This document shows positions 1-49,800 of a stretch of 53,760 bases of DNA, in pieces. Under the pieces are notes generated by a model. The model did no database searches, was not told the DNA's origin, and saw nothing but the letters and a program-made list of their open reading frames with translations. The stretch's first letter is position 1, and each line of letters begins with the position of its first letter. The stretch is from a virus (lineage: Duplodnaviria; Caudoviricetes). The translations under genes and the position numbers were made by a program. The stretch is from positions 1 through 53,760 of the IMG/VR virus record IMGVR_UViG_3300046000_006960, one strand, 5' to 3'.

Positions 1-3000
1 TACAACTTGCTCTTCTTCCAGACCTTGTTGCTCTTCTTTACTTTGAAGATCGTTTTCTATCTCTTGATTATTAAGCTCTTCTTCTTTTTGCTTAATGATT
101 TCTTTTATATAAGGGTTTTCAACTAAAGGATTAATGTTTTCTTTCTTATATGTTTTTAAATCATTCCAAAACTTTAATTCATTATCTATAGATGTTATTG
201 CTAACTTATCTATAATAGATTTTTCTAGTCTTTTTAATTTTTCTTTTTCAGACTTTAAATTTTGTTTAGCTTCAAATAATGCTTTTGTAGTTTTTATTAA
301 TTCTTCTTTAATAAACTTATGGTCAGCAACATTTTCATTTTTAATCTTACCCTCAGAAGTTAATAAAGATTTAATTACATTTCTTAATGCATCAGCATAC
401 CCTTCTAATCCTTCAATAGAATTTTCTAAATATTCAATATGCTCTTCTGAAGTTAACTTAGTAGCAAGCAATCTTTCTATAGAATGTCTATGTTCTTTAA
501 ATATTTCCTTATTTTGTTCTAAGTAATCAATTATTTCTGCAATAGAATTAAAATCAGTTTTTTCAATTTGCTCATATCTGTTAAAAACATATTCAATGTT
601 TTTATCAAGTTGTTTCAAATCTTTTTTAATCTCACCTTTAATTCCTTCAAGATATTCTATTTGCTTTTCTACTTTTTTAAGAGCATCTTGACTATCTTTA
701 ATCAACTCTTTTATAAGTTTAGCATTTCTACCTCTTGGAGATTTATCTTGAGCATCTAAACCTTTAATTATTGCATTCTTTTGTTTTACTAAATCATTTA
801 TTTCAGAATCTATTTCTGACATAAAATCATTTAAAGCAGTAACTTCTTGATCAAATGAATCAACTATTTCTGATAAAAATGTTTTAAATTCATCTCTATC
901 TTGTATTTTTTTAGTTATTTTTTCTTCTAAACTTTTTACTGTATCACTTATTTTAGACGAACTAATATTAATAGATTTTAATTTTTCTAAATTAAGCTGA
1001 AGGTTTTCTAAAGAGTCATTTTCATTTACACTTCTAGATAAATCATCTAATATTTCATTTTCCGCAACTTTATCATAATACTCTTTAGTATCTAAAGGAG
1101 TATGAGGTCTAGATAACATTTTATCTAAATCTTCTTTATTTTCTGCAGACTTGATATTATTTATTAAATCATCGGCTTCCTGAATTGCTTCATCTGATGT
1201 TTTTGCACTAAGTTCATTATCTTTTTTAACAAAGTCATCAAAAGTCTCATTAATGTTTTTACCTTGCCATATGTCAGAAATATCTTTTTTACTTTTTTCT
1301 ATTTCTTTTTTTAATGCATTATATTCTTCATTAGTTTTAGATAATAATTCATTGTTTTTAATAGCCTCTTTGGTTCTTTCAGCTCTAGCTATCATTTCAT
1401 CATTAGATATAGTTCCTCCTTTCATATTAGCTACTGGAAATTCAGCGGCTTCATCATATAAAGGATCTATTCCTAATTCATCAAAAATATTATTTCTTTT
1501 TTCTTCTAGCTTTTGTAACTTAGTTTCATTTGCTCTTAACTTATGTTTTGAATTTAAGTAAGAAGCATTTAATCTATTTAAAAATCTATCTTTTTGATCT
1601 TGATTAGCAGACTCGTTATCTAAACTAATTACATCTCTACTAAAATCACCAAACTTTTGATTTTGTTTTTGAAGGTATTTAGCAGTTTCTAATATTTCAT
1701 TCATGAAGTTTTTAGACTTATCTTTCTCATCAGAAGATTGATCTCTTTCTACTATTTCATTTAACTTGACATCTTCTCTTAGCTTTTGTTCTAAAGCCTT
1801 AATACCTATTTCTCCATTATGAATAGATGGCAAGACCATATTAAATATAGCTTCTCTTTTTAACTTGTCAACAACTTCTGTATTTCCAGTTTGAACTGCT
1901 AAATCAAATAGTTTTGATTGTTGTTCAGAAAAATTTAAAGATTTAGCAAGATTATAAACTTCTTTATTATCTAAAAGTCTTTCAGTGGTATCATTGCCAT
2001 CTTTGTCTTTTTTATATTTGTAACTTCCATCTTCATTTTGTTGATATATTTTATTATCAAAAATATCATTAAAATTAGTTATTTGAGAATCTATATTATC
2101 TAATACTTCATTAGTATATTTTCTATTAGCAACATCTTCTTTTCTGCCTTGATAAGACATCATTGGACCACCTAATGCTCCACCTAAAAATATAGCTTTT
2201 TGACCTTCAACAGAAGAAACAGTGTTTACATATTCTTTAGCAAAATCTCCAACGGTTTCAGAAATTTGATCAACATAACTTCTATTATCTTTTTTGCCAA
2301 GCTTATTTTGCATTGCTCTTTTAACATTAAAGTTTTCAGTAGTAGTTTGTAATCCTTCTTCGCCAAAACCTTCAGTTAAAAGAGCTTTTCCTACTTTACC
2401 TACTGACCTTCCAGCTCTATTTACAATACCTTTAATGCCTTGCTCTGCAGATCGCTCAAACTTTTGAGCAGCCTTGCCCCATATAGCTTTGTGCATGATT
2501 GCATTAGGGCCTAAAAGAATACCAACATTAGTTACAAAAGTATTTCTCATAGCCAATGCACGTTGTTCTTTAAAAGCTTCTTCTGCTACATCTGTAGAGG
2601 CTTTTGCAGATAACTCATTGTATTTATTTATATCTATAGAACCATTTCTTCTTTGAACATCTAATTCTTGTAGTTTTTTTGCTACTTTTTGTTGATGATC
2701 TGTACTTCCTACATAACTTTTAATAAAATCAGGCATCTTTCTTTCTAAATCATCACCAACACCTTTAGCTTCTGCTCCAGCCTCTAACAAAGTATTAGAT
2801 GTGATTGCCAAACCACTATCTATTGTTTTTCCAGTAATTCCCATAAATTTTAAAGCACTAACTCCTTCTTCAGCTTTTCCAGCCATTGAAGTATATTTTG
2901 CTAATTTTGCGCTATTTGCAGCTGCTCCAATTAATTTACTTCCAAGTCCTAAATATTCAAAACCAGCGCCAGGAGCCATCATACCTATAATAAAACCAAG

Positions 3001-46699: not shown

Positions 46700-46971
46700 A
46701 TTCTGGTAGTTCATTACCATTTGTTAAGACAGTAAATTAATAAAAAACTACCAATGCTCGCTGTTAGGCTACACACACAACAAAAAGGGTTTATATTACG
46801 ATAGCAAACCAGAAACCCTGAAAGACCAAGGTTGGTAAATAGTAGTTCGCGGGAGAGCACCTACTTTAAAAATAGCGATCCCATCATGGGGGTGCCTGGT
46901 TTTGACAGGTTACTAATAATTAATACAATCAGCCAGAGAGATAACTGTAAACTAAGGTGAATTAAATAAAC

Positions 46972-47073
46972 GACAAAAATACAACAGCTCAAACAAGAGC
47001 AAACATGCAAGTGGTTCATAACATCTTAAATGGTGGAACTTCAGTATCAACAGAAATGTTGATTGCTGCGTAA
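46972..47073 (+). other. tmRNA tag reading frame, (A)DKNTTAQTRANMQVVHNILNGGTSVSTEMLIAA
   Basis: Resume codon GAC inferred from the AAATAAAC context. 33 codons, then TAA. Confidence 0.8.
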
Positions 47074-47435
47074 TATTTTTAGATTATTTTAAGGATTTCC
47101 TTGTTAGATTAAACAAGGTGGTGGAATCACTGATTAATCAGTTGACCTCGTGTATCTAAACACATAAAACTATAGTGAAGCTGTATAAATTGTATTAAGG
47201 AATGTAATTTGGACGGGAGTTTGAGAACGGACTCACTATGTAGGGATATGTAGTTAAAAATTGGAAGAATTGCTGGAACACTAAAGCCATTTAGGTATGT
47301 ACAAAATTACAGTACACTAAGTAGTCAATCAGCAGCCGAGCTTACTGGCGGAAGTAAGAAGGTTCAACGACTAGGGAATCTAAGGATAGCCCACAGCCTC
47401 CAACACCTAGAACAGGTGATGATATAGTCTAATCA

Positions 47436-47855
47436 CTAGTGAAAACTAGTGCAGAAAAATAGCCTTTCATAAGCTAATTTTCTATCGTATTCTATTATAG
47501 AATATTTACCATTCTTTTTAGTTACAATATTATGATACTTTAATATAGTATTGATTCTATGTAATTTTTTAGAATGATGAGAATTTAATAATTCACAAAG
47601 CTTGTAACATACTTGATTGCTACTTGCAGATAAAGAATAGCCAATAGAATGGCTTGTCTTTTTAGCTGGTTTTGTACTGATTGAAAGTTTTAAATTATAA
47701 TTTAACAATAAATATTGTTGAATTTCTAATAAAAGATTTTTATCAGTATTTGTAAAATCAATTTTAATACAACGAAATTTGTCATCTTTAGATTGATAAG
47801 ACATTGTAATTGAGCCATCTGCATCAAAAAAACCTGAAATGTAATTTAAGTCCAT
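47436..47855 (-). CDS. Single-motif LAGLIDADG homing endonuclease, antisense within the intron
   Basis: MDLNYISGFFDADGSI motif and IDFTNTD. 139 aa. Confidence 0.9.
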   Translation of the reverse strand: MDLNYISGFFDADGSITMSYQSKDDKFRCIKIDFTNTDKNLLLEIQQYLLLNYNLKLSISTKPAKKTSHSIGYSLSASSNQVCYKLCELLNSHHSKKLHRINTILKYHNIVTKKNGKYSIIEYDRKLAYERLFFCTSFH

Positions 47856-47889
47856 AATAATAGGATAAGGGTTATATATACGTTAGGTG

Positions 47890-47920
47890 CAAATATACAA
47901 AATTTAATTACAAAAAACAA
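47890..47920 (-). promoter_or_regulatory. Bacteroidota -33/-7 promoter inside the intron, driving the LAGLIDADG gene
   Basis: TTGT-N19-TATATTTG, 34 nt upstream of the ATG, same spacing as the six other copies. Confidence 0.7.
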
Positions 47921-48257
47921 GTAAATGTTAAATTATTTTATAATAATTTTTATAATGAATTATAAATGCGATTCTCCCCACCTCCACTATATTTAATCTC
48001 TAAAATGGCAGAGAATAGGATTATATTAAAGTCACTGCATCCACTAACGATAATTGTATTTATATACAATTGTTTATTAAGTCTAAATCAGTCTAAACAA
48101 TATAATGCAAATTTGTGAGCAGTACGCCACTCACTTAAATAGAACAAAATTAAGGGTCTTAATAAATGTTAAAGATATTGAATCTGTCTATTATATATAG
48201 ACCCTTATTTTTTAAATTATAAATTATAACAAAATTATTAACTAACAATTAAATATT

Positions 48258-49446: not shown

Positions 49447-49521
49447 GTCTTAATCGTACAATAGTGAGTATTCTCTATATTTTTTATAGAGACAATTTAG
49501 GTTCAAGTCCTAATTAAGATA
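49447..49521 (+). tRNA. tRNA-like element with an aberrant U-rich anticodon arm (Lys-UUU-like or pseudo-tRNA)
   Basis: Acceptor GTCTTAA/TTAAGAT, D stem GTAC/GTAT, anticodon stem CTCTA/TAGAG around 9 nt TATTTTTTA, T arm TTAGG-TTCAAGT-CCTAA. Confidence 0.6.
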
Positions 49522-49591: not shown

Positions 49592-49663
49592 ATCTGTATC
49601 TGCTAAGGGTAAGCTGCCTAGCTTGGTGTTAGGAGAACGTGGGTTCGATCCCCATTACAGGTT
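49592..49663 (+). tRNA. tRNA-Pro(TGG), non-canonical
   Basis: Acceptor ATCTGTA/TACAGGT, anticodon arm CCTAG-CTTGGTG-TTAGG, T arm GTGGG-TTCGATC-CCCAT. Confidence 0.7.
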
Positions 49664-49800
49664 CAAATAAACTTCATAATGTTTATTTATTAGTTAGTTA
49701 ATAATGTGAGTGAAACTTAGCGTCCAGTCTGTGGAATAGGAGTAGCTCACATTTTTTAAATATTAGAAAACAATTAAAAACAATAAAAAATTAAATAATT

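Follow-up and report, generated by a model that had tools for sequence, protein, structure and literature searches.

A phage tmRNA gene split in its T-loop by a group I intron with an antisense LAGLIDADG gene, a probable homing element

Why is a gene for transfer-messenger RNA (tmRNA) in a phage split by an intron, and what is the nuclease encoded within that intron likely to cut? The question is raised by IMG/VR record IMGVR_UViG_3300046000_006960, a virus of the class Caudoviricetes, whose whole stretch of 53,760 bases (estimated to be ~53% complete) is referred to here as the window. In the window, a tmRNA gene is interrupted in its T-loop by a group I intron, which holds a gene for a LAGLIDADG homing endonuclease. 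This arrangement is probably a selfish mobile intron with a LAGLIDADG homing element, which would spread through cleavage of the T-arm of tmRNA genes. The anatomy of the locus, the predicted fold of the enzyme, the association of its family with the 3' ends of tmRNA genes and the range of candidate sites were computed, and from these we infer the cleavage, the cut position, the specificity, the homing and any effect on the host.

The 5' exon of the tmRNA gene was located at 46888-47221 on the plus strand from an Rfam match, the ARAGORN start on the spliced sequence and a reading of the sequence. It contains the 5' strand of the acceptor stem (GGGGGTG), the tag frame, the pseudoknot region, the 5' strand of the T-stem (GGGAG) and the T-loop bases TT. 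The 3' exon at 47969-47986 on the same strand consists of the T-loop bases CGATT, the 3' strand of the T-stem (CTCCC), the acceptor strand CACCTCC and the discriminator A. In this reading, the 5' exon ends in GGACGGGAGTT at 47221 and the 3' exon starts with CGATTCTCCCCACCTCCA at 47969, and the interval 47211-47986 spans GGAC ahead of the T-stem through the discriminator A. The bases right after the 3' exon are CTA, so that CCA is not encoded by the phage gene.

The Rfam tmRNA match at 46895-47218 is truncated at its 3' end and stops at the T-stem, with 21.9 bits relative to a cut-off of 47, where it was the interrupted gene that was scored. ARAGORN calls no tmRNA in the raw window; after removal of 747 nucleotides (nt) in silico, it calls a tmRNA of 355 nt, to which CCA was added. 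The spliced form has tRNA-like ends, with a 7-bp acceptor stem (GGGGGTG / CACCTCC + A) containing a G3-U pair, a discriminator A, a 5-bp T-stem and a 7-nt T-loop, and its joined T-arm is GGGAG TTCGATT CTCCC. The phage-borne tmRNA gene is split in the T-loop by a group I intron, and this structure is real.

The tag reading frame, DKNTTAQTRANMQVVHNILNGGTSVSTEMLIAA followed by a stop codon, lies at 46972-47073 on the plus strand, which corresponds to positions 85-186 of the ARAGORN tmRNA after splicing. The tag of 33 codons is unusually long and ends in LIAA before the stop, and ARAGORN labels it 'tag not identified'; the resume codon is GAC. Long tags are also seen in other phage tmRNAs, with 28 residues in contig L123 and 21 in each of L126 and L127, and the ends of the phage tags are IAA or VA. 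The Flavobacteriaceae chromosomes that were checked have tags of 9 residues, unlike the long phage tags.

The intron itself (747 nt; 47222-47968, plus strand) was placed by means of RF00028 and the boundary rules between T-loop bases 2 and 3 (TT|CGATT), which is subsite 3 in the numbering of PMC11915505. The RF00028 match at 47184-47451 covers the catalytic core from P3 to P9 with 80.2 bits, relative to a gathering score of 50 (E 2.1e-20). The boundaries fit the rules for group I introns, where the U at position -1 is paired to a G in P1, the exon GAGUU pairs with the intron guide GACUC, and the intron ends in G; a script gave the same boundaries as the reading by eye. In a close relative, L254, a change of the exon from GAG to GGG is matched by a change of the guide from GACUC to GACCC. 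The tmRNA and intron of L254 (9044-10116) show 83% identity to the 5' exon of the window and a T-stem strand of GCGGG, and the open reading frame (ORF) after P9 is again antisense; it is a different, cysteine-rich ORF with an HNH-like DRID..GY..NV motif, read by eye, and the contig ends before the ORF start. Because this ORF differs from the LAGLIDADG gene, the same intron slot appears to be used by two nuclease families.

The sole long ORF of the window's intron lies on the minus strand at 47436-47855, antisense to the intron, and was assigned from the ORF list, Pfam and the predicted fold as a single-motif LAGLIDADG homing endonuclease gene of 139 residues. It is located past P9 and shares ~16 nt at its 3' end with the P9 hairpin. 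The earlier note had placed a LAGLIDADG nuclease in a tmRNA intron, which the Pfam and Rfam matches and the coordinates bear out, although it had missed that the gene is on the antisense strand. The ORF matches LAGLIDADG_3 (PF14528, 2.1e-9) and LAGLIDADG_1 (PF00961, 3.8e-6) in Pfam, both above the cut-off, and the motif YISGFFDADG at residues 5-14 is invariant in all eight relatives compared, both acidic residues included.

The AlphaFold2 model has a mean predicted local distance difference test score (pLDDT) of 91.4 and is confident across all 139 residues, and the predicted fold is one alpha-beta-beta-alpha-beta-beta-alpha domain. The top Foldseek matches are I-Vdi141I, I-CreI and I-TnaI, with template modeling (TM) scores of 0.6-0.67 at 11-20% identity, and the Foldseek probability is 1.00 for I-Vdi141I and I-CreI. 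The homodimer model scored 0.59, relative to 0.01 for the best control, a result that may echo the solved dimers of the I-CreI type; among proteins of solved structure, 20 of 30 pairs and one of 23 single chains come up to this mark. The homodimer runs agreed in at least 96% of the contacts with a partner pLDDT of at least 87, and the LAGLIDADG helices form the interface. As judged from these models, the enzyme looks intact.

Together with I-CreI, I-MsoI, I-CvuI, I-Vdi141I and I-TnaI, the window's enzyme has a single motif, a size of the order of ~140-160 residues, an intron-borne gene and a conserved stable-RNA gene as its putative target. It shares with this homodimeric set the fold (Foldseek E 4e-5 to 4e-4, TM 0.56-0.67), and the two-copy model would also give it a symmetric dimer built on the motif helices. 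It differs from the set in its low identity (11-20%), in a putative target in tmRNA instead of rRNA, in a gene that is antisense to the intron, and in a cognate site whose even symmetry does not exceed chance.

A box TATATTTG was read by eye at 47890-47897 on the minus strand, ~35 nt upstream of the antisense ATG, as a candidate promoter element, and a like box (TATATTTG or TATATTTA) is present upstream of the ORF in L123, L124 and L125. The Bacteroidota-type -7 promoter element has the consensus TAnnTTTG, which the box presumably resembles, and it is possible that the box is such an element. A scan for sigma-70 promoters gave 16 sites, where 10.5 +/- 3.0 were expected, and none of them lies upstream of the antisense ATG.

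The site of action was addressed by the earlier note through the palindrome at the insertion site, which was said to suit a homodimer. The inverted repeat GGGAG...CTCCC is real; however, it is the 5-bp T-stem, which is present in any tRNA-like T-arm. Because the loop has 7 nt, the centre of the T-stem falls on a base, and 6 of 11 positions are symmetric about it. According to PMC3943268, LAGLIDADG enzymes always leave 4-base overhangs. Their dyad would accordingly lie between two base pairs, a register that the palindrome of the T-stem does not have. When even dyads from -6 to +8 relative to the insertion site were scored, only 1-5 of 11 positions proved symmetric, and shuffled sequences gave a mean best of 5.1 over nine offsets. 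The palindrome argument is therefore weak, although the homodimer with a T-arm target to which it led may be correct all the same.

Comparison among relatives of the enzyme is more informative. The family comprises 620 proteins at E <= 1e-5, nearly all of which are metagenomic, on contigs of up to ~140 kb; relatives of 134-165 residues are numerous, and the family includes five members with an NCBI source and one relative that is 92% identical. A search of 50,697 records of cultured phages gave only a distant match, in Sphingobium phage Lacusarx at 28% identity, and nothing closely related to the enzyme. The locus survey covered the window and 26 viral loci that encode an enzyme relative (n = 27). 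The enzyme gene is antisense within a tmRNA T-loop intron in 15 loci and sense within such an intron in two (L270 and L273). In three further loci (L269, L271 and L272), it is a free-standing convergent gene 11-59 nt past an intron-bearing tmRNA gene, whose intron is ORF-less and short (194-225 nt), and in another three (L274, L276 and L280), it stands directly past an uninterrupted tmRNA gene. Altogether, 23 of 27 loci have the enzyme gene at the 3' end of a tmRNA gene. The 20 introns that were resolved are inserted at subsite 3 (15 introns), 2 (one), 7 (two) and 8 (two).

In L274 and L276, the T-loop beside the free-standing gene is AGTCGGAG, with 8 nt, instead of TTCGAnT, and in L280 the T-stem is deviant (TCCAG/CTGGA). 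These deviant T-arms fit self-protection by sequence change, and the tmRNA genes of L274 and L276 may be nuclease-resistant alleles. The two genes score 75.8 bits (L274, 805-1213) and 62.6 bits (L276, 1351-1740, minus strand), and the LAGLIDADG gene is convergent just downstream of each. The tie between the enzyme and the tmRNA T-arm proposed in the earlier note thus finds indirect support in this comparison of loci, not in the palindrome, and as a putative target the T-arm is well supported by the arrangement of the genes.

Several observations weigh against a mobile intron that spreads through T-arm cleavage. A pseudo-palindrome of ~22 bp with a between-base dyad was not found at the window's site, where even-dyad symmetry is at chance, and multimeric homing enzymes are said to need significant target symmetry (consulted parts of PMC3943268). 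In four of the 27 loci no tmRNA was seen: L267 showed a group I intron only, and L277, L278 and L281 gave no Rfam match at E <= 0.001. In L280, a canonical T-loop adjoins an apparently intact enzyme gene, which implies either that the stem is read or that the target is elsewhere. The enzyme of L256 is 74% identical to that of the window and its site has 7 of 22 mismatches, and that of L258 is 66% identical with 0 of 22; enzyme identity does not track site similarity, so that specificity is not readable from these loci. In a sample of 401 Flavobacteriales genomes, the exact 22-mer of the intronless cognate site is rare, being present in the centre genome, which was picked for having the site, and in none of the 400 others.

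A reading of specificity from the co-variation of enzyme and site was tried and rejected, as identity did not track mismatch and the set is small. The columns conserved in the 19 cognate sites resolved by script are AC, three G's of the stem, TTC-A-T and CTCCAC. Conservation of these T-arm columns is expected in most tmRNA genes.

Some of these observations would also suit an enzyme that cuts outside the T-arm, for example just downstream of tmRNA genes, with the T-loop intron as a tolerated landing spot: 6 of 27 copies lie outside any intron right after the tmRNA 3' end, the site has no even-dyad symmetry, and the canonical T-loop of L280 adjoins an intact copy. On the other hand, 17 copies are inside introns with the T-arm as the sole shared flank, the introns occupy four different subsites of the same 7-nt loop, the regions downstream of the tmRNA genes are unlike one another in the sequences compared, and the T-loop is rewritten in two of the three uninterrupted neighbours. 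We therefore consider a target outside the T-arm improbable.

The same loci bear on whether the ORF still encodes an active nuclease. Decayed copies exist in the family, such as a 43-residue remnant in the bacterial genome G456 described below, and LAGLIDADG maturases are known, one solved example of which (2ab5) is among the weak sequence matches, so that the ORF could be a decaying passenger or could only help splicing as a maturase. The ORF of the window is full length with an invariant motif, however, its fold is confident over 139 residues and many relatives have 134-165 residues, and three free-standing copies lie beside uninterrupted tmRNA genes, where there is no intron to help. There is only a small chance that the ORF is no longer an active nuclease.

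Two other arrangements were noticed besides. In L273 (~1600-2000, plus strand), the sense-oriented LAGLIDADG gene ends in a TAG codon whose G is also the terminal G of the intron, so that the reading frame reaches the 3' splice site. In L376, a metagenome contig, a phage-type tmRNA is interrupted at subsite 8, and its antisense ORF of ~180 codons is cysteine-rich and unrelated. L376 came from a metagenome scan with a gapped intron-core pattern, which gave 119 stretches with 124 core matches and was too generic; the script resolved no tmRNA in the 119 stretches, and by eye only L376 was a tmRNA.

Under the T-arm homing reading, the antisense gene, probably from its own promoter, would yield a small homodimeric endonuclease, which would most likely cut tmRNA genes in the T-arm region where no intron interrupts it. 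With the intron-bearing copy as the template for repair, the intron would then spread together with the nuclease gene. The phage's own gene would be spared, since its site is divided by the intron, and a working tmRNA would be expected after splicing. The usual substrates would be intronless tmRNA genes of related phages that co-infect the cell, and bacterial ssrA genes with a near-identical T-arm would be possible secondary substrates.

Whether such substrates exist was examined in the tmRNA lineage of the window, defined as 94 viral contigs that share a 33-mer. In this lineage, 82 genes are uninterrupted, four have the subsite-3 intron with the enzyme, and eight are unresolved; the intron-plus-enzyme allele occurs in contigs of four runs from four studies. 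Compared with the window's 22-mer, the 77 uninterrupted alleles with a 7-nt loop include 15 with one mismatch, eight with two and 12 with three. The public runs that hold the stretch are labelled as lake, drinking-water and other freshwater metagenomes, and no RNA run is among those listed; 93% of the sampled words of the window were found in one run (X1) and at most a third in the others. A contig in X1 ends in an uninterrupted GGACGGGAGTTCGAAT allele. The window has no further site with fewer than 8 of 22 mismatches to the cognate 22-mer. The pool of intronless alleles and the lack of a second site in the window make homing among related phages the best-supported role, and the main substrates are probably the intronless tmRNA alleles of related phages.

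Non-canonical T-loops were observed in eight of the 82 uninterrupted lineage genes (L404, L412, L430, L438, L458, L475, L486 and L490). These loops are TATCGTAT, GGCAGTA, TGCAACT or the 6-nt TTCGAT, and no LAGLIDADG gene lies within the available locus. Beyond the lineage, at least 120 viral contigs have the exact uninterrupted 22-mer; among the 120 listed, ARAGORN called a tmRNA in 97, mostly of the permuted type with ANDxxFALAA tags, and none of the listed contigs is kin to the window's tmRNA by BLAST.

The earlier note had further proposed that the enzyme might cut ssrA in the host, whereby host trans-translation would be replaced by a phage tmRNA with a different tag, and had regarded divergence of host ssrA at many positions across the site as evidence to the contrary. 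Such divergence is not general, since at least 120 genome stretches of a bacterial species collection, from many phyla including Flavobacteriaceae, have the exact intronless 22-mer at the ssrA 3' end, and in all 121 matches listed it is followed by an acceptor-type 3' strand. In four of four Flavobacteriaceae genomes checked, the chromosomal tmRNA gene (138-161 bits) has the exact 22-mer at its 3' end, and three of these genomes encode the tags GESNYALAA, GEDNYALAA and GEGNYALAA. In the 401 Flavobacteriales genomes, where an ssrA-type match was defined as one with the GGAC prefix and the reversed-pattern control gave 0, one genome (the centre) matches with no mismatch, five with one, 14 with two and 21 with three. 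In a further 31 genomes there are only matches without the GGAC prefix, which are probably tRNA genes.

A profile search for the enzyme in 401 Bacteroidia genomes gave one match, in the 7.2-Mb genome G456. The only above-cut-off tmRNA of this genome, which scores 76.1 bits and has the tag GNNQFALAA, contains a group I intron of 83.6 bits at subsite 3 (GAGGG TT|CGATC CCCTC), and a 43-residue remnant of the enzyme family lies downstream, past a terminator and convergent to ssrA. The gene is on a 155.7-kb contig whose genes are of the usual chromosomal kind, and its neighbours encode a type IX secretion cargo, a 3-hydroxyacyl-CoA dehydrogenase and a trehalose-phosphate synthase. The intron was found in 3 of 52 genomes of the bacterial family to which G456 belongs; in 36 others the matches break off where the intron would be inserted, and inspection of one of these, G811, showed an uninterrupted gene. 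The G456 intron is 72-74% identical to the phage introns of L272, L269 and L376. Judged from these sequences, the element family has entered a chromosomal ssrA of Bacteroidia.

Host-ssrA cutting is likely to have happened at the level of the enzyme family, and for the enzyme of the window phage it is plausible. A wider claim is that the element shuttles between phages and Bacteroidota hosts, where the enzyme cuts host ssrA genes that match the T-arm and the intron is planted in survivors. In that case, a cut in host ssrA would usually just break the chromosome of a doomed cell; in its boldest form, the claim holds that the cut would stop fresh host tmRNA and that the phage tmRNA with its 33-residue tag would take over rescue. 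We regard this shuttling as unlikely.

That the cutting is an adaptation through which the phage tmRNA and its tag replace host trans-translation draws on the exact 22-mer in the chromosomal ssrA of some Flavobacteriaceae, on a phage tag (33 residues, LIAA end) that is unlike the GE(S/D/G)NYALAA tags of three 22-mer-bearing Flavobacteriaceae, and on the arrival of the enzyme family in a bacterial ssrA. Against it, an ssrA-type site within one mismatch is found in 6 of 401 Flavobacteriales genomes and within three in 41 (the centre included), and 82 of the 94 lineage phages have a tmRNA without intron or enzyme, which indicates that the role of the tmRNA is independent of the nuclease. The only host trace is an intron-bearing ssrA that encodes a canonical tag when spliced, which is invasion and not loss. 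Moreover, tmRNA is a stable and abundant RNA, which a cut in its gene would not be expected to clear during a single lytic cycle. That host trans-translation is replaced finds no support here, and we consider an adaptive role of this kind very improbable.

How does the proposed phage homing element compare with known systems? Intron-form tmRNA was reportedly first described for Clostridium botulinum. Bacterial intron-form tmRNA genes have since been surveyed; in the parts of PMC11915505 consulted, T-loop subsites 2, 3, 7 and 8 are described, subsite 3 is reported from the class Bacteroidia only, and LAGLIDADG genes are given for 36 of 883 intron-form tmRNAs, some of them after P9. tmRNA T-loop introns with LAGLIDADG genes are thus already known in bacteria. 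The present introns share with those described there the group I type, the location in the T-loop, the -1 U, the terminal G and the same four subsites. They differ in being carried by phages, in the mostly antisense orientation of the enzyme gene, in the free-standing copies beside intron-bearing or uninterrupted genes, and in the use of all four subsites within one enzyme family. The main-text passages of PMC11915505 consulted mention neither phage intron forms nor the orientation of the enzyme gene, and its supplements may hold cases.

In collaborative homing, a free-standing endonuclease targets the insertion site of an ORF-less intron, as described in the consulted part of PMC3984707 and also treated in PMC2790892 and PMC6083498. 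L269, L271 and L272 resemble it in gene arrangement only, with an ORF-less intron and an adjoining free-standing gene, and other members of the family are intron-borne, so that both states connected by the collaborative model are represented. The enzyme family and the target gene are different, and a third state, in which the gene is free-standing beside an altered uninterrupted target, occurs together with these two within one protein family. In the literature searched, largely as titles and abstracts, no description was found of such introns in phages, of enzyme genes that are antisense to the intron or free-standing, or of changed T-loops, and no paper dealing with what phage tmRNA does or with host-gene cleavage by homing enzymes was listed.

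A further parallel is I-Ssp6803I, the endonuclease of a cyanobacterial tRNA-fMet intron, which is a PD-(D/E)xK tetramer that targets the anticodon loop. It is likewise intron-encoded and has a tRNA-like stem-loop target with a built-in inverted repeat. The present enzyme differs from it in being a LAGLIDADG protein, not a PD-(D/E)xK tetramer, and in its putative T-loop target.

As for the rest of the window, its DNA kinship with cultured phages is a short match alone, which lies inside the tmRNA gene of the crAss-like Cellulophaga phage phi14:2 (L002). The phi14:2 gene at 2463-2932 is uninterrupted according to ARAGORN and Rfam (46.0 bits), and in the GenBank record three small hypothetical proteins (gp011 to gp013) are annotated over it. 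The window also has tRNA genes for Lys(UUU) and Pro(UGG) at 49447-49521 and 49592-49664, respectively; the Lys gene is very A+T-rich and is found by ARAGORN, but not by Rfam at the gathering score.

Phage tmRNA genes appear to be a large reservoir, in which one endonuclease family is seen at every stage in the life cycle of a mobile intron: as a separate gene next to an intact target or to an ORF-less intron, within the intron on either strand, and in decay. Host cutting, if true, would be a new form of phage interference with ribosome rescue, a step that the present data do not support. Because the same enzyme family is present in a bacterial chromosome, phages are a candidate vector for the intron invasion of a near-universal bacterial gene, and the loci offer a natural series in which to study how a meganuclease of the homodimeric type keeps pace with a stem-loop target that changes fast.

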